From Escherichia phage ZCEC14, in the sequence record OP168898.1: a DNA stretch of 64,000 nucleotides. One strand, given 5' to 3'. The notes under the pieces are model-generated. The model made no database searches, was not told where the DNA came from, and was given only the letters and a program-made list of their open reading frames with translations. The position numbers and the translations under genes are program-made. Shown one piece after another: positions 9,534 through 53,646 of the stretch. How positions within the stretch are numbered: position 1 is the first letter of the stretch; every line of letters starts with the position of its first letter.

Positions 9534-12500
9534 TTATTCAATCCACTCAAATTTAACAGTTTTATTCACTGGGTCAGGAATAATGCGAACATTACCAATT
9601 CGTAAGAAATCACGAATAGTAAGATTACCTATTATTCCATTATCAGATGGGATTGCTCCTATATCCGAAGGTTGAGGAGGGTTACCTCCATCAAATACCT
9701 GAACAAAACTTGACCAAGAGTTTTTAGTTTTTTGCCATGTACGTGTCCAGCGAGTGGTACGTGCTTCTGGAGTCGTTGGATAAGTAATCCAATCTTGGTA
9801 AAGTGAATCAAGTGTGTTACCAAACTGAGTCAATGTACCAGGAGATTTAACTTCTTCGCCACGTTCTAAGTATGGAAGTCCAGTAACTTCATTAGTTTTT
9901 TCAACCATTTTAAAATAACCCGGGAACTGGTTATAAGTGGCTGAATCATTAATATCGATTGACCAGAATCCTACAGTATCAGATGTCGGCGCACGAGTAT
10001 ATAAATCAGATGTTTTAACACCTTGAGAACGAATTCTCGAGTTAACAGTTAAACCACCTGAATTTATAGTAGCACCTTTAGCAATGATCAAGCTTTCACC
10101 AATTGTGACCTGCCCAGATTGATTATTAATGGACAATGGACGTAATCCATTAAATCCACCAGTTTGATTGCCTGATGCAGTAAGCATAAAATTCGTTACT
10201 GACCCGTCATTACGAATAATGAAACCATAATTTCCGTTAATAGCACGGAAAGCATTTGCGCTTCGAGAAATAATTTCACCAGTTGCAGTGACTGAATTAC
10301 CAAATGTTGCTACACCATTTGCATTCAATGTTCCTGAAGCATTAACATTTATCGGTGTTACTGTACCGTTGATATTAAATGTTATATTTCCAGCTTTATT
10401 ACGCTGAGAATAAAAATGACTAGACGTTTCATCACTAACTTCAAATACGGTAGAACGTGTTGTGTCTGATTCCCCACTAAATTGATTTCCCCACACTCTG
10501 ACAGTCATCGTTTGAGCCGGGTTTGTTCCAGTTTGAGGTCCTTTCTCAAAAATCAGACGAGTTGCCGTTCTAGTATTAGAAATAGTTAATGTACTATTTG
10601 CTGAAACTGATCCACCGAATGTAGCAGTACTAGATGATACAAGAGGGGCACTCAGATTCGTTTGTTGGGTTAAGGTTAGTGAACCATTAACTGTTTGTGC
10701 AATGTCCCTACGAATGAACTGGAGCGAATCTAGACCATCTAATAAATTACTATCTACAGCTTTTGCTTTTAATGGCAAATAATTTGCTAATACGCGATTT
10801 AATTCATATGGTGATACTGCATAACCATTTTTCTCGTATAATTCTAATGACTGCGTTGAACCAACGGTATCATTACCAACGAATGTAATTGAACCAGATG
10901 AAGTTTTAACAAACCCTCTTATCAGAGTAGTTGCTGCCCAAGTAGGTTCACTCTGCACAATCCATTTTAAATTTTTTGGAGATACAGCAGTATTTGCTGA
11001 CGTTCCAGTCACAGTTTCAGACTGAGTTGCAACTTTAATAACACCTTCTTGTGCTTCAGTAGATTTAGTACCTAAAAGCTTTTTAGGAGTTATCAAAACA
11101 TTATCTAATGTTCCTGCAGCAGCTTCAACTTGTGTAGCTACACGAAGTGTACCACGTTGTGTCTCGTTTGCTTCAAGAATATTAAGGGTATAATGGTCCC
11201 AGAGAGTTCCTGATTCAACTAATCCAGATAGAGCAACAACAGAAGTACGATCAGTACTATTAAATCTGGTTTTAATTTTTAATGGTGTAGAGATACGAGT
11301 ATCGTCGACGCCTGCGTCGAATTCAACTTGCGTAGCAATTTCAGCTATACCACTTAAACTTTCAGTTGCTATACGGTCATTTAAAGTTTTCGGAGTGACT
11401 GCACGAGTGTAATCAGTTCCTGTATTAACTTCACTTTGCGTAGCAATTTCAATTAAACCAATTCTTCCATCAGTTGATGTCTTTTTATGTAACGTTTCTG
11501 GCGTTACAACCGCATTTGCCCATCCTTCTTGGCTTTGTCCAGCAATTACTTCACTTTCAACTGCTAAAATTACTGCACCTTGTTGTGTTGGAGTAGCTTT
11601 ATACTGATCCAGAGCTTTAGGCGAAACAACTAAATTATTAGTGTTTTTATTATAAACGTTTGTACCATTTAATTCACGACTAGAAGCTGGAGTAGCTCCT
11701 GCGGTAGATACAAAGGTTACAATACCCGATAATGATTCAGAACCTTGTCGAGCTTGAAGCTTTTTAGGAGTGATGATTGTAGTATCATCAGTACCTGTAT
11801 TAGTTTCCTGTTGCGTAGCAATTTCAGCAACGCCTCTACGAGTTTCTGTAGCAGTTCTTTCATTCAGCTTTTTAGGAGTGATGATAATATCATCAGCAAA
11901 AGAGAATGTGGTGTTCTGATTCACTTGAGCAGTAGTTGCTATTCTTGCGATACCTCTACGAGTTTCTGTAGCAGTACGGTTAGCTAATGTTTCTGGTGTA
12001 ATTGCTAATTCTTTTTGTGGAGAATTTTCTAAATCAGCATTTGCTTGAGCTTGCGTAGCTAAAGCAATTACGCCTAATCTTGCTCTAGTAGAAGCATTTA
12101 AAGAGTCTACTCTTTCTACAGTTGGAACGTTTTGCTGTACAACCCAGTATTTTCCATCAGAATCTTCTATATAAGCAAGTTGTAAAACTGGAACATAATT
12201 AGTTTCACCGTTAAAAACTAATTCTTGAACTGTTACCCATTCAGCTTCAGGCGGATATTCTGAACGTTTTGGGAATTGCAGCAATTGAACTGAAGAAGCA
12301 ATTTTATCTTCACCGGCAGCTTTGATTTTAACTGTTTGTCCTTTTCTCATGTAATTCATGGAAATTTTGACAGTATCACCAACAGAAATATCAGTCGGAA
12401 GCTGAAGTTCAATTGTTTGGGGTGTTCCATTATTCGCACCAAACACCATGACTTCTTCATTTGGACGAATATTAGAATTAGTTGTTATAATGCGTAAACG

Positions 12501-16698: not shown

Positions 16699-16727
16699 GG
16701 GGACCCTAGAGGTCCCCTTTTTTATTT
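16699..16727 (+). terminator. rho-independent terminator after gene 32
   Basis: GGGGACC-CTAGA-GGTCCCC then TTTTTTATTT. Confidence 0.7.
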
Positions 16728-16786
16728 CAAAATTTTTTCACAAAACGGTTTACAACCAAAGCATACTGTGGTACTATACAACTATC
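16718..16786 (+). repeat. promoter-leader repeat family A, copy 2
   Basis: near-identical to 228-297. Confidence 0.85.
16748..16777 (+). promoter_or_regulatory. T4-type early promoter
   Basis: GTTTACA 16748-16754, 17-nt spacer, TACTAT 16772-16777. Confidence 0.6.
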
Positions 16787-22745: not shown

Positions 22746-23924
22746 ATGAGCACAGTTTTTAATACAAATCCAGTTGATGTTTTAAAAGAACCTATGTTTT
22801 TTGGTTCAGGTCTTGGTATTGCGCGTTATGATATTCAACGTCATAAAGTTTTTGAAGATTTAACCGAAAAGCAATTATCATTTTTCTGGCGTCCCGAAGA
22901 AGTAAACTTAATGATGGATGCTGCACAATTTAATAAACTTCCTCAGTATCAGCAGAATATTTTTACTAACAACTTGAAGTATCAATCACTTTTGGATAGC
23001 ATTCAGGGTCGTGCACCGTCTGCTGTACTTATGTCATTAATTTCAGACCCAAGTCTTGATACATGGGTTGCTACATGGACTTTTAGTGAAACTATTCACA
23101 GTCGTTCATATACTCATATCATGCGAAATCTTTATACTGATCCATCGAAGGTATTTGATGAGATTGTATTAGATGAAGCTATTATGAAACGTGCTGAATC
23201 CATTGGGCGTTATTATGATGATGTTCTGATTAAAACCCGTGAATGGGAAAATGCTAAAGAATTTGTAGAACTAGCTAAAGAATCTCCTGATGCTGTCTTT
23301 CGTTTAAACCGAGCTATTAAACAAGAAGCCGAAGCTAAACGTGCTTTAATGAAATCTCTTTACCTCTGTTTGCACGTTATTAATGCCTTAGAAGCTATTC
23401 GTTTTTATGTATCTTTCGCATGCACCTTTAACTTCCATAAGAACATGGAAATCATGGAAGGTAATGCCAAGATTATGAAGTTCATTGCACGTGATGAGCA
23501 GCTTCACCTTAAAGGCACTCAATATATTATTCGTCAGCTTCAATCCGGTACTGATGGTGATGAATGGGTTAAAATTGCTCAAGAGTGTGAACAAGAAGCA
23601 GTTGATATTTTCATGGAAGTTAACCGCCAAGAAAAAGATTGGGCAGTTCATTTATTTAAAGACGGCGATGTTCCTGGATTAAATACAAATAGCATGTGGA
23701 GCTTTATTGATTACTTAACTGTATCTCGTATGAAACAGTGTGGTCTTCCATGCCCAATTACCGATGCTCCGGTTAAACATCCATATCCTTGGATTCGTGA
23801 ATATCTTAATTCTGATAATGTTCAATCAGCGCCACAAGAAGTAGAACTGTCATCTTACCTTGTTGCACAGATTGATAATGATGTTGATGATAAAGTTATG
23901 ATGAGTTTTAAAAAATACTTTTAA
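22746..23924 (+). CDS. nrdB: aerobic ribonucleotide reductase small subunit, uninterrupted (no intron)
   Basis: continuous 392-aa ORF with the di-iron/tyrosyl-radical fold; starts 51 nt after nrdA. Confidence 0.95.
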   Translation: MSTVFNTNPVDVLKEPMFFGSGLGIARYDIQRHKVFEDLTEKQLSFFWRPEEVNLMMDAAQFNKLPQYQQNIFTNNLKYQSLLDSIQGRAPSAVLMSLISDPSLDTWVATWTFSETIHSRSYTHIMRNLYTDPSKVFDEIVLDEAIMKRAESIGRYYDDVLIKTREWENAKEFVELAKESPDAVFRLNRAIKQEAEAKRALMKSLYLCLHVINALEAIRFYVSFACTFNFHKNMEIMEGNAKIMKFIARDEQLHLKGTQYIIRQLQSGTDGDEWVKIAQECEQEAVDIFMEVNRQEKDWAVHLFKDGDVPGLNTNSMWSFIDYLTVSRMKQCGLPCPITDAPVKHPYPWIREYLNSDNVQSAPQEVELSSYLVAQIDNDVDDKVMMSFKKYF

Positions 23925-23954: not shown

Positions 23955-25539
<1,585 letters not shown>

Positions 25540-25542
25540 GTT

Positions 25543-25596
25543 GTTTACAAGTCACTCGTGTTGTGTTATAGTAGTCTTACTGACATAACATGAGGA
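25543..25596 (+). repeat. promoter-leader repeat family B, copy 1 (partner at 41070-41123)
   Basis: 54 nt identical to 41070-41123; contains GTTTACA 25543-25549, extended -10 TGTTATAGT, and GAGGA SD. Confidence 0.85.
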
Positions 25597-25603
25597 CTTT
25601 ATG

Positions 25604-26107
25604 ATGGATTTGCAGCTTATTACTACTGAAATGGTCGTTGAAGCATACGGTGATACTACAGATGGGATTTCTGTATTCAAAGGAAATCGTCGAGTTGGAT
25701 ATATCACCGATCTTAAGAAAGATTTAGCTAAGCAAGTCAAGCGGAAAACGACCATTAAAGAATATCGAAATCGTCGTCTTGAGCAAGCCCGTGATATGCT
25801 TCCTGATGCGGTTGAAGAGATGAAAGTCTTTTTAGAAAATCAACTCGCTAAGTATGAGTGCGAAGTGTTCATTAATCAGACTCAACCCAATGTTCATATC
25901 AATAGCTGCAAATGCTATATCATCGTTAATCCTTTGACAGGAAAACATCGTCTTGGAATTAGTAATCCAAATCGTAGTGCATCGGATATGGCAGAAGATG
26001 TTGAGGCATGCTTTAAAATTTCTAAATCTCCAGCTGAACATCATATTTTAATTAACGGTCTTTCTCAAGACGATATTATAGAGGTTATTAAAACTTTATG
26101 CATGTAA
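25604..26107 (+). CDS. alc: Alc, inhibitor of host transcription on cytosine-containing DNA
   Basis: 167 aa from the ATG at 25604 (T4 length); position after rnlA; identification by synteny and partial sequence recall. Confidence 0.7.
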   Translation: MDLQLITTEMVVEAYGDTTDGISVFKGNRRVGYITDLKKDLAKQVKRKTTIKEYRNRRLEQARDMLPDAVEEMKVFLENQLAKYECEVFINQTQPNVHINSCKCYIIVNPLTGKHRLGISNPNRSASDMAEDVEACFKISKSPAEHHILINGLSQDDIIEVIKTLCM

Positions 26108-28520: not shown

Positions 28521-28550
28521 GTTTACTTTACGGTAGAGTTGTGATATTAT
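28521..28550 (+). promoter_or_regulatory. early promoter
   Basis: GTTTACT 28521-28527, 17-nt spacer, TATTAT 28545-28550; the -10 lies inside the inverted repeat GGTAGAG/CTCTACC. Confidence 0.45.
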
Positions 28551-32057: not shown

Positions 32058-32086
32058 GGACTCCTTCGGGAGTCCTTTTTTATTTT
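32058..32086 (+). terminator. rho-independent terminator
   Basis: GGACTCC-TTCG-GGAGTCC then TTTTTTATTTT. Confidence 0.75.
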
Positions 32087-32105
32087 CCAAAGACTGCACA
32101 AAGTT

Positions 32106-32135
32106 GTTTACAGTACGGTTCCTTTGTGATAGTAT
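32106..32135 (+). promoter_or_regulatory. early promoter
   Basis: GTTTACA 32106-32112, 17-nt spacer, TAGTAT 32130-32135. Confidence 0.5.
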
Positions 32136-32162
32136 TATCTTACACAAACAAAGGAGAATAAA

Positions 32163-32495
32163 ATGAAAACTATTAATCTGAACGCTACAGTTAAAACTAA
32201 ATGCTTCAATGGTAAATATAATGAAACTATGTGGTTCTTAATGGCAGTTGAAGGTGATATTATTGAAGTAGAAACAACAGAAGGTATGGGAACAGATTTC
32301 ACCTTTACAATTCAAGTTCATAATTTCTTTACTGGTTGGATTTATGAATTGAATACAGTAATCGTTGGAAAAATTGAACAAAATGAATTAGGCGAATGGC
32401 ATTATGTTACAGCTCGCCAACGTGCAGAACGTTTAATTGAGAAGATGAAAAAAGTTGGTAAACTTGACATGCAGCACTGGAAAGTAGTAAAATAA
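32163..32495 (+). CDS. hypothetical protein, 110 aa
   Basis: ATG with AAGGAG SD. Confidence 0.5.
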   Translation: MKTINLNATVKTKCFNGKYNETMWFLMAVEGDIIEVETTEGMGTDFTFTIQVHNFFTGWIYELNTVIVGKIEQNELGEWHYVTARQRAERLIEKMKKVGKLDMQHWKVVK

Positions 32496-36884: not shown

Positions 36885-36892
36885 TATAAATA
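36885..36892 (+). promoter_or_regulatory. late promoter (TATAAATA) for the alt genes
   Basis: TATAAATA on the + strand about 20 nt upstream of the alt-1 start. Confidence 0.6.
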
Positions 36893-36915
36893 GAATAAAC
36901 ACTAGAGAGGATATG

Positions 36916-39009
36916 ATGGAACTTATTACAGAATTATTTGACGAAGATACTACTCTTCCGATTACAAACTTAAATCCAAAGAAGAAAATACCGCAAATTT
37001 TTTCAGTTCATGTTGATGATGCAATTGAACAACCAGGCTTTCGTTTATGTACCTATACATCTGGAGGTGATACTAACCGTGATTTAAAGATGGGCGATAA
37101 AATGATGCACATTGTTCCTTTTACACTAACTGCTAAAGGTTCAATTGCTAAATTAAAAGGTCTCGGTCCAAGCCCAATTAATTACATCAATTCAGTTTTT
37201 ACTGTTGCAATGCAAACAATGCGTCAGTATAAAATTGATGCCTGTATGCTTCGTATTCTTAAGTCTAAAACTGCTGGTCAAGCTCGACAAATTCAAGTTA
37301 TTGCTGATAGACTTATCCGTAGTCGTTCAGGTGGCAGATACGTCCTTCTTAAGGAACTCTGGGACTATGATAAAAAGTATGCATATATTCTTATACATCG
37401 CAAAAATGTATCACTAGAAGACATTCCAGGAGTTCCGGAAATTAGTACCGAGCTCTTTACTAAAGTTGAATCGAAGGTCGGCGATGTTTATATCAATAAA
37501 GATACCGGAGCTCAAGTAACTAAAAATGAGGCAATTGCAGCATCTATTGCACAAGAAAATGATAAACGTTCTGACCAAGCTGTTATTGTTAAAGTTAAAA
37601 TTTCCCGTAGAGCAATTGCGCAAAGTCAATCATTAGAATCTTCTAGATTTGAAAGTGAATTATTCCAGAAGTATGAATCTACCGCAGCTAATTTTAATAA
37701 ACCTGCTACCGCTCCTTTAATTCCCGAAGCAGAAGAAATGAAGCTTGGAATTAATTCATTAGCTTCTAAAACTAAGGCAGCAAAAATTATTGCTGAAGGA
37801 ACTGCAAATGAACTTCACTATGACTATAAATTCTTTTCAAAAAGTGAGGTTGATGAAGTTTCTGAAAAAATTAAAGATGTAATTCTTAATGCGATTAAAA
37901 ATGAACCAACTACTTCAATAAAATGTTTAGAGAAATACGCAGCAGCTGTTAATAAATTCTTTGAAGAATATAAAGATAATTGGCTTGATAAACATAATAA
38001 AACCCGTAAAGGACAGCCAGATGAAGTCTGGGAAGAAATAACTAAAAATTCCTGGAACGCAGCAAAAACTAAATTCCTCAAACGAATGATTTATAGTTTT
38101 TCTGGAATTGGTGCAGGTCCAATGATTGATATTACTATTGCCCGTGATGGTTCTAAATATACTCCATCACAAAAGCGCGGCATTAGAGAATATTGTGGAT
38201 CAGGATATACTGACATCAATAATCTTCTTTTAGGCCGCTACAATCCAGAACGATATGATGTAATGAGTGAAAAAGAAATTGAATCTGCGATAAATAATTT
38301 AGATTCAGCTTTTGAAAATGGTGATCGTATACCAGAAGGCATTACAGTTTATCGTGCTCAAAGCATGACTGCTCCTATATACGAAGCACTAGTTAAAAAT
38401 AAAGTGTTCTATTTCAGAAATTTTGTATCTACTTCTTTAACTCCTATCATTTTTGGACGTTTTGGAATTACACATGCTGGTATCGGTCTTTTAGAACCAG
38501 AAGCTCGCAATGAATTAACAGTTGATAAAAATGAAGAAGGAATAACTATTAATCCAAACGAAATAAGAGCGTATAAAGAAAATCCTGAATACGTTAAAGT
38601 TCAAATAGGATGGGCAATTGATGGAGCTCATAAAGTTAATGTTGTATATCCAGGAAGTCTCGGAATAGCAACAGAAGCTGAAGTTATTCTACCGCGCGGA
38701 TTGATGGTCAAAGTTAATAAAATAACTGATGCTTCTAATAATGACGGAACAACATCTAATAATACAAAACTCATTCAAGCTGAAGTTATGACTACGGAAG
38801 AACTCACCGAATCAGTAATTTATGACGGTGACCGTCTAATGGAAACTGGCGAAGTAGTTGCAATGACAGGTGATATTGAAATAGAAGACAGAGTTGACTT
38901 TGCATCATTTGTTTCATCAAATGTTAAACAGAAAGTAGAATCATCTCTTGGAATTATTGCGTCTTGCATAGATATTACAAACATGCCTTACAAGTTCGTT
39001 CAAGGATAA
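36916..39009 (+). CDS. alt: Alt-like ADP-ribosyltransferase, paralog 1 (697 aa)
   Basis: N-terminus MELITELFDE... shared with paralog 2; C-terminal R / STS / ExE-type transferase motifs (YRAQ, FVSTSL, EAEVILPRG). Confidence 0.8.
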   Translation: MELITELFDEDTTLPITNLNPKKKIPQIFSVHVDDAIEQPGFRLCTYTSGGDTNRDLKMGDKMMHIVPFTLTAKGSIAKLKGLGPSPINYINSVFTVAMQTMRQYKIDACMLRILKSKTAGQARQIQVIADRLIRSRSGGRYVLLKELWDYDKKYAYILIHRKNVSLEDIPGVPEISTELFTKVESKVGDVYINKDTGAQVTKNEAIAASIAQENDKRSDQAVIVKVKISRRAIAQSQSLESSRFESELFQKYESTAANFNKPATAPLIPEAEEMKLGINSLASKTKAAKIIAEGTANELHYDYKFFSKSEVDEVSEKIKDVILNAIKNEPTTSIKCLEKYAAAVNKFFEEYKDNWLDKHNKTRKGQPDEVWEEITKNSWNAAKTKFLKRMIYSFSGIGAGPMIDITIARDGSKYTPSQKRGIREYCGSGYTDINNLLLGRYNPERYDVMSEKEIESAINNLDSAFENGDRIPEGITVYRAQSMTAPIYEALVKNKVFYFRNFVSTSLTPIIFGRFGITHAGIGLLEPEARNELTVDKNEEGITINPNEIRAYKENPEYVKVQIGWAIDGAHKVNVVYPGSLGIATEAEVILPRGLMVKVNKITDASNNDGTTSNNTKLIQAEVMTTEELTESVIYDGDRLMETGEVVAMTGDIEIEDRVDFASFVSSNVKQKVESSLGIIASCIDITNMPYKFVQG

Positions 39010-39012
39010 ATC

Positions 39013-41070
39013 ATGGAACTTATTACAGAATTATTTGACGGCGCTTCGGCGCCGGTTGTTAACTTAAATCCTAAGCATAAAATACCTCAAATTTTTGCTA
39101 TTCAAGCCGGCGAAGAAAGCGTGCTTCCTGGATTTAGATTTTGTACATACACCTCTGGTGGTGATACAAATAAAAACGTTAAGCCAGGTGATAAAATGAT
39201 GCATATCGTAATGATAGGTGTCAATGAGAAACTATCATTAGTTAAACTTAAAAACTTGGGTGGAAATCCAATTGGTGTCATTAATGCTGTTTTTGATACT
39301 GCTCTTCAAACAATGAAACAATATAAAATCGACGCATGCCTATTCCGCGTACTAAAAAGTAAAACAAATGGCGCAGCTCGTCAAATGCAAGTTATTGCTG
39401 ACCGTTTAGTACGTACTAAAGGAGCAGGTCGTTATGTTCTTTTAAAGGAAATCTGGGACTATGATAAAAAGTATGCATATATTATGGTTTACCGTAAAAA
39501 TGCCAATTTAGAAGACATTCCAGGTGTACCTCCTATTTCAACTGAGTTATTCACAAAAGTTGAATCGAAGGTCGGTGATGTTTATGTAGACGTTAAAACA
39601 GGTAATGCTGTTCCTAAAGCTGTCGCTGTTGCTGCTTCTATTGCTTTAGAAAATGATAAACGTACTGACCAAGCGGTTATTCAGAAAACTAAAATTAGTC
39701 GTCGATTAGCAGCGCAAGCTCAATATTCTACTGTCGATGCTTCACTTCAGGGTGATAGCTTCGCTGCCAAGAAATATCAAGAGTTTGAATCTAAAGTTCC
39801 GGTATATAAAGCAGAAGGACCAATGAACTCTGGCGTTATTCAGATTGGTTCAAACTTCAGCAAAGGAGCTATCGGTGGTATGAGGAGTGCTTCTCGTTTT
39901 AAATCTAACGATTATGAACTAGAAAACTTCCGAAATCATATTGCATTAGCCCATGCGCGTTTACGTGATCCATCTATCAAGTTGCAGAGCGATATAACAT
40001 ATCAAGGTTCTCAAGAATATTTAAAGAATAAAGAATTCTTTGATTATAAAACTGATAAAATTTTAAGCGATCTTGCTGATATTAATATTTCTAATAGCTT
40101 TGATGTTATTAAGAAAATTATCAATGATTTGGTTAAAGGTTCTAAAGCTACGCCAGATGAAAAGACAGCTATTATTCAATTTGTAATGAATGGCATTTAT
40201 AAATTGATTAATGAATCTGCTGCTCAGGCGTATGAATATGCAAGTACTGAAGTAACTCCAAAAGGATTAACTCAGGCTGAATCTGACGTAATTGAAGATT
40301 ATTGTGCTGATTCATATGTTGAAATGAACTCGTTCCTTTTGGGTAAACCAGATTCTACCCGTGAAGAATATATGGAACGAGCTATTAAACACATCGAGAC
40401 GTTGGATTCTGCCTTTGCCAAAGGATCAGTTCTTCCTCCAGGAACTACGCTTTATCGCGGACAAGAAGTTACATTTAAAACTTTGCGTCATAACATTGAA
40501 AATAAAATGTTCTATTTCAAGAACTTCGTATCCACATCGCTTAAACCAAATATCTTCGGTGAGCATGGTAAAAACTATATGGCTCTAGATGATTCCGGCG
40601 CAGTATTTTCTGGTGAAGGAGAAGGTTCCGTTGATGCAGAAGATTTGATGCATATGGGTAGTCATTCTACATATGCTAATGAAGATGCTGAAACTAGCGT
40701 GGGTATGGTAATTAAAGGAGCTGAACGAATCAAAGTTATCGTTCCAGGTCATTTATCAGGATTTCCATCAGAAGCTGAAGTTATTCTACCACGTGGAATT
40801 TTACTGAAGATTAATAAAGTAAGTACGTACTTTATGAAAGAAACTGCTTATAACAAGTATCTAATCGAAGGTACAATCGTTCCTCCTTCCGAACAATTAG
40901 AAGAATCGGTATATGATGGTGACCATCTGATGGAAACTGGTGAAGTTCGTCCAATGACTGGATTTAACCAATTCCTTGTAGAAGAATCAAAAGAAGAGGA
41001 AAACGAAGTTTCTCAAATCTTGGCTTCTTTGGTTAACATCAACGGAATGTCTAAAAAGTTCAAGATGTAG
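39013..41070 (+). CDS. alt: Alt-like ADP-ribosyltransferase, paralog 2 (685 aa)
   Basis: N-terminus MELITELFDG...; C-terminal motifs YRGQ, FVSTSL, EAEVILPRG; closer to the T4 Alt length (682 aa). Confidence 0.8.
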   Translation: MELITELFDGASAPVVNLNPKHKIPQIFAIQAGEESVLPGFRFCTYTSGGDTNKNVKPGDKMMHIVMIGVNEKLSLVKLKNLGGNPIGVINAVFDTALQTMKQYKIDACLFRVLKSKTNGAARQMQVIADRLVRTKGAGRYVLLKEIWDYDKKYAYIMVYRKNANLEDIPGVPPISTELFTKVESKVGDVYVDVKTGNAVPKAVAVAASIALENDKRTDQAVIQKTKISRRLAAQAQYSTVDASLQGDSFAAKKYQEFESKVPVYKAEGPMNSGVIQIGSNFSKGAIGGMRSASRFKSNDYELENFRNHIALAHARLRDPSIKLQSDITYQGSQEYLKNKEFFDYKTDKILSDLADINISNSFDVIKKIINDLVKGSKATPDEKTAIIQFVMNGIYKLINESAAQAYEYASTEVTPKGLTQAESDVIEDYCADSYVEMNSFLLGKPDSTREEYMERAIKHIETLDSAFAKGSVLPPGTTLYRGQEVTFKTLRHNIENKMFYFKNFVSTSLKPNIFGEHGKNYMALDDSGAVFSGEGEGSVDAEDLMHMGSHSTYANEDAETSVGMVIKGAERIKVIVPGHLSGFPSEAEVILPRGILLKINKVSTYFMKETAYNKYLIEGTIVPPSEQLEESVYDGDHLMETGEVRPMTGFNQFLVEESKEEENEVSQILASLVNINGMSKKFKM

Positions 41071-41123
41071 TTTACAAGTCACTCGTGTTGTGTTATAGTA
41101 GTCTTACTGACATAACATGAGGA
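41070..41123 (+). repeat. promoter-leader repeat family B, copy 2
   Basis: 54 nt identical to 25543-25596; GTTTACA 41070-41076, TATAGT 41094-41099, GAGGA SD. Confidence 0.85.
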
Positions 41124-41130
41124 ACACAAA

Positions 41131-41421
41131 ATGAAATCTTCTTTGCGCTTTTTAGGTCAAGAACTTGTAGTTGAAGGCGTTATTCCTGCTGATAACGCTT
41201 TTAATGAAGCGGTTTACGACGAATTTATCAAAATTTTTGGAACAGATAAAAAGTTTGGAATTTTTCCTTCTGAAAATTTTTCAAAGCCAGAACAGACTGA
41301 AAACATTTTCCAAGGTGTAGTAACAGGTAAATTTGAGTCAGAAGCTCCGGTAAAAATTGAAGTTTATATTGAAGACAGTTTAGTTGCTTCAGTTGCTGCT
41401 TTTATTTCATTCCGTAAATAA
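41131..41421 (+). CDS. hypothetical protein, 96 aa
   Basis: ATG 8 nt after the family B GAGGA. Confidence 0.5.
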   Translation: MKSSLRFLGQELVVEGVIPADNAFNEAVYDEFIKIFGTDKKFGIFPSENFSKPEQTENIFQGVVTGKFESEAPVKIEVYIEDSLVASVAAFISFRK

Positions 41422-41425
41422 AAAC

Positions 41426-41447
41426 ATGGGGACCGAAAGGTCCCCAT
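41426..41447. terminator. bidirectional hairpin terminator between convergent genes
   Basis: ATGGGGACC-GAAA-GGTCCCCAT flanked by A-run upstream and T-rich downstream. Confidence 0.6.
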
Positions 41448-52228: not shown

Positions 52229-53646
52229 ATGGCTTTTACAGTTGATATAACTCCTAAAACACCTACTGGAGTTATAGATCAGACTCAGCAGTTTACTGCT
52301 ACACCCAGTGGTGAAACTGGAGGCGGAACTATTACCTATGCTTGGAGCGTAGATAATGCTCCCCAAGAAGGATCAGCAGCAACTTTTGATTATGTATTAA
52401 AAGGACCTGCTGGTCAAAAAACTATTAAGGTAGTTGCAACAAATACTATTCCTGATTCTGAAGCTGAAACAGCTGAAATTAGTACAACTATCACAGTTCA
52501 AAATAAGACACAAACGACTACCTTAGCCGTAACTCCTAATAGTCCTCCGGAAGGAGTAATCGGAACAGCTATTGAATTTACTGCCGCTTTAGCTTCGCAG
52601 CCACCAGGTGCATCTGCTACGTATCAATGGTACGTTGACGGTTCTCCTGTGGGCGAAGCAACTTCTGCTACATTCAATTACACTCCTGCCGAAAGCGGGG
52701 TAAAAAGAATTAAGTGTGTGGCTCAAGTAACCGCAACAGATTATGATGCAAAAGAAGTTACTTCTAATGAAGTGTCACTGACTGTTAATAAAAAGACACA
52801 GACAACTACTTTGGCAGTAACTCCTGATAGTCCTTCAGCTGGAGTAATTGGAACCCAGTTCAATTTACTGCTGCCTTAGCTTCTCAACCAGTTGGAGCGT
52901 CTGCTACGTATCAGTGGTATGTAGATGATTCACAAGTTGGTGGAGAAACTAACTCTACATTTAACTATACTCCAACTACAAGTGGAGTAAAAAGAATTAA
53001 ATGCGTAGCCCAAGTAACTGCTGAAAATTACAATGAAAAGGAAGTTACTTCGAATGAAGTATCATTAACGGTTAATAAGAAGTCAATGAATCCACAGGTT
53101 ACATTGACTCCTCCTTCTATTAACGTGCAGCAAGATGCTTCGGCTACATTTACAGCTAATGTTACTGGTGCACCAGAAGAAGCACAAATTACTTATTCAT
53201 GGAAGAAAGATTCTTCTCCTGTAGAAGGGTCAACTAACGTATATACTGTTGATACCTCATCTATTGGAAGTCAAACTATTGAAGTTACTGCAACTGTTAC
53301 TGCGGCTGATTATGATAGCAAAACTATTATAGCAGAAGGTCAAGTTCAGGTAACTGATAAAGTTGCTCCGGAACCAGAAGGTGAATTACCTTATGTTCAT
53401 CCTCTTCCACACCGTAGCTCAGCTTACATCTGGTGTGGTTGGTGGGTTATGGATGAAATCCAAAAAATGACTGAAGAAGGTAAAGATTGGAAAACTGAAG
53501 ATCCAGATAGTAAATACTACCTGCATCGTTACACTCTTCAGAAGATGATGCAAGATTATCCAGAAGTTGATGTTCAAGAATCACGTAATGGATACATCAT
53601 TCATAAAACTGCTTTAGAAACTGGTATCATCTATACCTATCCATAA
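52229..53646 (+). pseudogene. hoc: hoc (outer capsid Ig-domain protein) with duplicated Ig domain, interrupted by a 1-nt frameshift
   Basis: ORF 52229-52879 ends at TAG; the -1 frame is open from 52831 to 53646 and continues the Ig repeat and the C-terminal capsid-binding region; shift coincides with CCC at 52854-52856. Confidence 0.7.
52505..53080 (+). repeat. tandem direct repeat, 2 x ~288 bp, encoding Ig-like domains of hoc
   Basis: unit 1 ~52505-52792 and unit 2 ~52793-53080 are near-identical (AAGACACA..ACTACCTTAGCCGTAACTCCT...); unit 2 is 1 nt shorter. Confidence 0.85.

Follow-up and report, generated by a model that had tools for sequence, protein, structure and literature searches.

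Two gene pairs of Escherichia phage ZCEC14, rnlA-alc and alt paralog 2-alt.-3, are separated by one and the same stretch of 54 nucleotides. The repeat raises the question of what this sequence does at two loci 15.5 kb apart, and how it came to be present twice. The window (the whole analysed DNA of 64,000 nucleotides, record OP168898.1) is a Tequatrovirus (T4-like) sequence with 97-98% identity to T4 and its relatives, and its plus strand corresponds to the T4 minus strand. The explanation that we favour, and consider reasonably probable as a whole, combines an early promoter, a gate that would make translation depend on where the transcript started, an alt.-3 copy that was derived from the alc cassette, and a later gene conversion between the two copies.

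The repeat and its loci

The two copies (GTTTACAAGTCACTCGTGTTGTGTTATAGTAGTCTTACTGACATAACATGAGGA; Table 1) lie on the plus strand and are identical at 54 of 54 positions, the exact match that the sequence-only reading had claimed. At up to three mismatches the repeat has just these two matches in the window, and 100 dinucleotide-preserving shuffles yielded none by chance. Upstream the likeness runs 3 nt further with one mismatch (57 nt, 98%), and downstream it breaks off sharply after GAGGA. At both loci the cassette makes up the whole intergenic gap. The gene downstream of copy 1 carries the Pfam ALC family and is alc, as had been proposed; its start codon is the ATG at 25601 or at 25604, the T4 annotation using the second ATG (25604 here). 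The stop codon TAG of alt paralog 2 shares its G with the GTTTACA of copy 2, so the early-type promoter said to stand directly after the late alt pair is indeed found there, in front of alt.-3.

Both copies are present in T4 at the same two loci, where they are identical to each other at 53 of 54 positions. Among about 500 Tequatrovirus records, 409 are matched by the copy-1 query and 465 by the copy-2 query. An assembly artefact was ruled out, since T4 and hundreds of independently determined genomes carry both copies.

Table 1 Features of the two cassette copies and of the neighbouring genes in the window.
Feature	Position	Strand	Remarks
rnlA (RNA ligase 1)	24415..25539	+	Pfam; stop TAA 25537-25539, 3 nt before copy 1
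Cassette copy 1	25543..25596	+	rnlA-alc gap
Copy 1 -35 (TTTACA)	25544-25549
Copy 1 TG	25564-25565
Copy 1 -10 (TATAGT)	25567-25572
Copy 1 SD (GAGGA)	25592-25596
Copy 1 predicted +1	~25579	+
Copy 1 RNA hairpin (predicted)	25549..25599	+	All five SD bases paired
Copy 1 hairpin core	25555-25573; 25574-25577; 25578-25594		5' arm; loop GUCU; 3' arm
Copy 1 hairpin lower extension	25549-25553		Paired with 25595-25599
alc (inhibitor of host transcription)	25601..26107	+	Pfam ALC
Late-promoter consensus TATAAATA (T4 type)	36885..36892	+	Upstream of alt pair; equivalent feature annotated in MZ726795
alt paralog 1 (ADP-ribosyltransferase)	36913..39009	+	ASO78A annotation
alt paralog 2	39013..41070	+	Pfam ADP-ribosyltransferase; stop overlaps first base of copy 2
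Cassette copy 2	41070..41123	+	alt-paralog-2 to alt.-3 gap
Copy 2 -35 (TTTACA)	41071-41076
Copy 2 -10 (TATAGT)	41094-41099
Copy 2 SD	41119-41123
Copy 2 predicted +1	~41106	+
Copy 2 RNA hairpin core, 17 bp (predicted)	41082..41121	+	SD G, A and G paired
alt.-3 (DUF5498, 96 aa)	41131..41421	+	Pfam; served by copy 2
Bidirectional intrinsic terminator	41426..41447	.	Between alt.-3 and convergent gene 54

The alt pair of the window consists of two full-length paralogs, and T4 alt.-1/alt.-2 (T4 locus L002, 1072-1457) resemble an internal deletion of the second one. The junction of this apparent deletion lies at the microhomology CTAAAAAGT, and the copy-2 cassette is untouched by it.

Other repeats were seen in the window. 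A second repeated regulatory cassette occupies 224-297 and 16713-16786 (74 nt, 92% identity), with a partial copy at 32074-32112; it is made up of the T-tail of a terminator, a UP-like segment rich in A/T, GTTTACA and a -10, and is probably the 'family A' of the earlier reading. A 227-nt direct repeat of 75% identity with a spacing of 287 nt spans 52572-53085, and a cluster of 30-46-nt repeats at ~11.3-12.0 kb (11298-11975) probably lies within coding regions.

Promoter elements and expression timing

T4 early promoters are of the UP/-35/TGn/-10 type, with a GTTTACA -35, a 17-nt spacer, TGn and a TAnnnT -10 (Hinton 2010, PMC2988021). Both copies carry TTTACA, a 17-nt spacer, TG-n and TATAGT, with a sigma70 score of 10/12 and an extended -10, and thus present the complete set of T4-type early (sigma70) elements (GTTTAC(A), 17-nt spacer, TGn, TAnnnT). 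The -35, extended -10, leader and SD were located where the sequence-only reading had placed them within the repeat. The cassette sites are annotated as predicted T4 early promoters in the GenBank records of two relatives, fPS-65 and ASO78A, and match the Miller 2003 consensus as given in MZ726795 and LR215724; the GenBank entry of T4 carries no promoter annotation there. The promoter identity of the cassette is well supported. Host RNA polymerase would start about 7 nt past TATAGT, near repeat position 37, which would give short-leader early mRNAs for alc and alt.-3.

Co-regulation of the two downstream genes, a point raised from the sequence, is borne out in T4, where the time-resolved transcriptome and proteome place both alc and alt.-3 in the early-RNA/early-protein class (PMC9697503). 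In the same data rnlA is early-RNA/late-protein and alt is late. Transcription from upstream into the cassettes is plausible, given the T4 middle promoters at nrdB/nrdA (PMC2988021, Table 1, which lists no further one in the rnlA-alc interval) and, for copy 2, the late promoter TATAAATA upstream of alt, from which transcripts could reach the cassette with no terminator in between. The nrdB gene (22746-23924) is uninterrupted in the window and is joined from two pieces in the T4 record. Searches of the readable literature turned up no account of a promoter, a transcription start or a structured leader for alc or alt.-3, and no start-site mapping, RNA structure probing or translation data on the cassette; an older description may exist.

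Predicted hairpin over the ribosome-binding site

Folding of the sense-strand RNA of the cassette predicts a 17-bp hairpin in which positions 13-25 and 28-31 pair with positions 36-52 around a GUCU loop. The 5' arm (positions 13-31) is formed by the promoter spacer and the -10, between the -35 and the leader, and the 3' arm (positions 36-52) by the leader and the GAG of the SD GAGGA. The predicted folding energy is -24.4 kcal/mol (z -4.8) for copy 1 and -21.2 kcal/mol (z -3.8) for copy 2. Three of its pairs are G.U and none is an A.C mismatch, in line with a structure of the sense-strand RNA. The predicted +1 at about repeat position 37 falls inside the 3' arm, such that the cassette's own transcript would by geometry lack the 5' arm. 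The conserved leader had been taken to suggest a shared post-transcriptional signal. A predicted SD-sequestering hairpin, which that reading had not noticed, is in keeping with such a signal, but half of it lies upstream of the predicted start and hence outside the 5' UTR of the cassette's own transcript.

The cost of opening the region from SD to AUG was compared between RNA that begins 100 nt upstream of the cassette (read-through RNA) and RNA from the cassette's own promoter. The calculated cost is 11.5 versus 2.1 kcal/mol at copy 1 and 11.4 versus 2.2 kcal/mol at copy 2. At copy 1 the probability that the SD is unpaired is 0.01 in the read-through RNA and 0.75 in the own transcript; at copy 2 three of the five SD bases are firmly paired, the first three having a probability of 0.00 of being unpaired. 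The difference between the two kinds of RNA is largest at these two copies among the nine early-promoter cassettes of the window, those at 28521 and 32106 being intermediate and five having no difference at all.

The two intermediate cassettes were noted in their own right. In the early promoter at 32106-32165 (ORF from 32163, 110 aa), UCCUUUG pairs with the CAAAGGA of the SD AAGGAG, and the alc-derived covariance model described below matches this segment at 24.7 bits; the design, with an anti-SD in the spacer, is the same. The SD opening cost is 6.7 versus 0.3 kcal/mol for this cassette and 7.7 versus 1.2 kcal/mol for that at 28521.

Rfam covariance models gave no match at copy 1 and, at copy 2, only a chance miRNA match (17.9 bits against a gathering score of 200). 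A search for intrinsic terminators (GC-rich stem-loop plus U-tract) found 0 terminator-like sites at either copy, and the hairpin was rejected as an intrinsic terminator because it has no U-tract. As to RegB, the SD GAGGA does not contain the GGAG motif.

The mechanism that these predictions suggest is as follows. RNAs started upstream, namely middle-mode nrdB/rnlA transcripts at copy 1 and late alt transcripts at copy 2, would carry both arms, and their ribosome-binding site would be buried. RNAs from the cassette promoter, which would lack the 5' arm, would be translatable. Synthesis of Alc and Alt.-3 would then follow the brief activity of the early promoter.

Comparative analysis of the alc upstream region

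The helix was compared at alc in seven annotated phages of other genera and 41 IMG/VR loci. At least 10 further Tevenvirinae lineages have the same anti-SD/SD helix in front of alc, built from different stems that co-vary. Immediately behind GTTTACA, a pyrimidine-rich anti-SD that pairs with the SD of alc is found in Dhakavirus, Karamvirus, Winklervirus, several Klebsiella-phage lineages and others. The remainder of the stem varies from lineage to lineage, as in the arm pairs TCTCCATTTGGTT/AACCAAATGGAGA, TCCTCATTTCGTT/AACGAAATGAGGA, ACCTCTCATTTTT/GAAAATGAGAGGT, GCCTCGTTTGTT/AACAAACGAGG and ATCCCATTTTGTT/AACAAAATGGGGAT.

An alignment-free test in which arms were mixed and matched as duplexes gave a mean of -18.2 kcal/mol for cognate and of -9.45 kcal/mol for non-cognate arms; in 12 of 13 rows the best partner is the cognate arm, and none of 100,000 permutations reaches the observed value. 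In the covariance-model alignment, which is itself fitted to the structure and for which the mix-and-match test serves as the independent test, 92.4% of the cells are paired and both sides change in 10 of the 17 pairs. Double changes number 55 cells versus 15.8 in shuffles (0/500), and slid controls on the same alignment are 34-47% paired. A MAFFT alignment of the alc cassettes, which placed the lineage helices out of register, was left out of the pair counts. The first covariance-model search mixed reverse-strand palindromic matches and non-alc promoters, and was replaced by a restricted search.

Within Tequatrovirus the variants are mostly pairing-neutral (G16A, C11T, C15T and G40A). Copy 2 of Yersinia phage ZN18 has G29A, which creates a perfect TATAAT but breaks the stem pair G29-C38, so that promoter strength and hairpin stability visibly trade off against each other.

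The SD is not masked at alc in every lineage. In Mosigvirus only a small spacer hairpin is found and SD sequestration is absent; in Gaprivervirus there is neither a promoter directly before alc nor SD sequestration there; in MHG19 and at loci L046 and L052 the hairpin encloses the -10 and stops just 5' of the alc SD; and several distant phages of Acinetobacter/Aeromonas type have no such structure at alc. The gate is therefore dispensable in some lineages. In the Gapriverviruses (VR7, locus L014, and loci L038, L039 and L067) rnlA and alc are separated by an additional small ORF that is annotated as Alc-like, with a terminator-like GGGGTG...CCCC hairpin upstream of it and the GTTTACA promoter absent directly before alc.

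A translational gate at alc is supported by the calculated thermodynamics and by strong covariation, within the limits of predicted structures. The predicted gate at alt.-3 may be incidental. The alt.-3 genes of other genera, described next, have no anti-SD, and the hairpin may therefore be functionally irrelevant at copy 2.

Origin of the alt.-3 copy and exchange between copies

In JS98, KaAlpha, Roth80, Virsaitis27 and the Gaprivervirus contigs, alt.-3 is preceded by a different early promoter that abuts the alt stop codon. The spacer of this promoter forms a small hairpin of the CCACAAGGATGTGG kind, an anti-SD is lacking, and the promoter is not a repeat of the alc cassette of the same genome. 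The different promoter in these outgroups marks the alc cassette as ancestral and indicates that the Tequatrovirus alt.-3 copy was derived from it. The alc cassette would have replaced the other early promoter in the Tequatrovirus ancestor, probably through recombination at the -35 and the SD; the ends of the replacement do coincide with these two universally conserved elements. The duplication history of the cassette is well supported.

Repeat position 12 points to a later exchange. It is A in both window copies and C in T4 and all other Tequatrovirus cassettes compared, except copy 2 of fPS-65 and ZN18. A 39-nt megablast query that matches only if position 12 agrees found A12 in 11 of 50,697 records, all at the alt.-3 site and none at the alc site, although a copy-1 A12 accompanied by a second mismatch close by would escape this query. 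The 11 records are the closest relatives of the alt.-3 region of the window. Recent ectopic gene conversion is the parsimonious reading of A12 at both window copies: a short tract would have passed from copy 2 to copy 1 in the window lineage and restored the 54/54 identity. The duplication or recombination proposed by the sequence-only reading thus takes the form of a transfer of the cassette from alc to alt.-3 followed by a recent conversion, as judged from the outgroup states and A12. The copies differ at one position in T4, three in fPS-65 and four in ZN18, so that homogenisation appears to be occasional and not continuous. An exact-core scan of IMG/VR returned nine loci, two of them unrelated chance matches, a number too small for a population test of concerted evolution.

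Hybrid alc cassettes were found in IMG/VR 2706795356 (Dhakavirus-like; L053 and L076) and in Klebsiella phage Roth80 (L017 and L022). Their 5' half is of alc type and includes the anti-SD, and over their 3' 29-43 nt they have the same or almost the same sequence as the alt.-3 cassette of their own genome, unlike their relatives. As far as sequence patterns tell, this suggests repeated partial conversions between alc and alt.-3 in other genera. The donor of the 3' halves in Roth80 and IMG/VR 2706795356 could instead be a third cassette.

Alternative explanations

The repeat could be a duplicated promoter and nothing else, its identity reflecting recent ectopic recombination of PeSL-like cassettes and its hairpin having no function at either locus. 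T4-type early cassettes do have a long consensus in common and recombine (PMC2839356, PMC4122927), the alt.-3 promoter of other genera has no anti-SD, and the copies drift apart in some Tequatroviruses. Neither drift nor promoter constraint, however, predicts that the anti-SD/SD helix at alc is kept by compensatory changes, and most Tequatrovirus variants preserve the pairing; we regard this explanation as unlikely. It is decidedly unlikely that the stem-loop acts as a terminator or attenuator of upstream transcription, the role ascribed to PeSL stem-loops, with insulation at the level of RNA synthesis and not of translation. In a transcriptional lacZ fusion a PeSL stem-loop lowered expression to the same extent as a strong terminator (PMC2839356), WebGeSTer flags the copy-2 hairpin in MZ726795 as a terminator, and copy 1 is followed by CUUUAU. 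Yet neither copy is followed by a T-run, the terminator scan was empty at both copies, the sequence after copy 2 and after most orthologous alc hairpins is A-rich, and it is the complementarity to the SD that co-varies, of which termination has no need.

The stop codons give some ground for translational coupling, in which the SD would stay closed unless ribosomes on rnlA or alt paralog 2 melt the hairpin, and the genes would be co-translated on long transcripts: TAA lies 3 nt before copy 1, TAG overlaps copy 2, and the arrangement is the same in JS98 and other genera. The core anti-SD (positions 13-15) nevertheless begins 12-18 nt downstream of the first stop-codon base, and unwinding by a terminating ribosome would be expected to reach less far, judging from ribosome footprints; moreover, rnlA yields a late and alc an early protein in T4, which speaks against joint synthesis and leaves coupling a very improbable explanation. 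Least probable, and by a wide measure implausible, is a role in RNA processing or stability, in which RNase III would cut the stem or the hairpin would protect the 3' end of the upstream mRNA once it has been cleaved. Such a role would suit a long, nearly perfect stem at a gene boundary in a phage whose mRNAs are extensively processed (PMC3014915), but a 17-bp stem with a bulge is short for RNase III, and the SD would be left unexplained as the conserved pairing partner.

Discussion

The early promoter with a transcript-origin gate remains the reading that we prefer for the alc cassette. Its general form is that the Tevenvirinae alc promoter, set inside an anti-SD hairpin, is a sensor of transcript origin that limits translation of Alc to immediate-early RNAs, and that this portable unit was copied to alt.-3 and is still exchanging by short-patch conversion. 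We offer this broader proposal tentatively, as a real possibility. The gate, if true, would explain how strictly early protein is made from genes that lie downstream of the middle- and late-transcribed rnlA and alt. It would also give a function to the PeSL stem-loops over the -10, which have so far been read as terminators. Exchange between the copies would span 15.5 kb including essential genes, and the pair would be a clear case from nature in which a second gene acquired an existing regulatory module and conversion on ~54 bp of homology keeps the copies alike, which is relevant to how T4-like genomes shuffle regulation. A modest consequence for annotation is that such intergenic repeats would be described as promoter-plus-translational-insulator units.

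The cassette resembles known T4 early promoters in having the same elements and early downstream expression in T4 (PMC2988021). It differs from them in that the other early promoters of the window are only partly alike beyond the consensus, whereas this pair is identical including the leader, and in that its spacer is constrained by pairing with the SD.

The PeSL cassettes of T4-type phages carry a strong sigma70-like early promoter, TTTACW N17 TAYWAT for the T4/PST pair (PMC2839356, PMC4122927), and their copies recombine between the -10 and the SD/ATG (PMC2839356); T4-type early-promoter cassettes in general have long consensus stretches in common and are known to recombine (PMC2839356, PMC4122927). 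The present cassette is organised like a PeSL (PMC2839356): from stop codon to start codon it has a sigma70 promoter, a stem-loop that covers the -10 and includes G.T pairs, and an SD, and it occurs likewise in repeated near-identical copies. Its layout is that of PeSL, with stop codons that abut or overlap the -35, a stem-loop that encloses the -10 and an SD at the 3' end. PeSLs, however, flank variable ORFans in a hyperplastic region, whereas the copies here lie 15.5 kb apart beside conserved genes of which several are essential; both alc and alt.-3 occupy conserved loci, though T4 appears to have an internal deletion in alt paralog 2 next to copy 2. The repeat also has no AT-rich segment or terminator, and its stem-loop has no U-tract and uses the leader and SD as its 3' arm. 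The predicted role of the stem-loop is likely to be translational masking rather than termination.

The closest functional counterpart is found in T4 e, soc, 49 and I-TevI, in which hairpins sequester the ribosome-binding site and a late promoter within or beside the helix gives a translatable RNA (Uzan & Miller 2010, PMC3014915). In both cases (by prediction here) the SD is buried on RNA started upstream, the own transcript lacks the 5' strand, and the structure is kept in related phages. The promoter there is the late TATAAATA and translation is delayed; here it is an early sigma70 promoter, and the gate would restrict translation to the earliest minutes. Neither alc nor alt.-3 appears among the readable published examples of hairpins of this type (PMC3014915). 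As modelled, the cassette works like the e/soc/49/I-TevI gate and is not a strict member of that class, since its internal promoter is an early sigma70 promoter and not a late one. If true, it would be the early-class counterpart to the RBS-masking hairpins of T4 late genes, and the immediate-early restriction of Alc would mirror, in time, the gate of genes e and soc.
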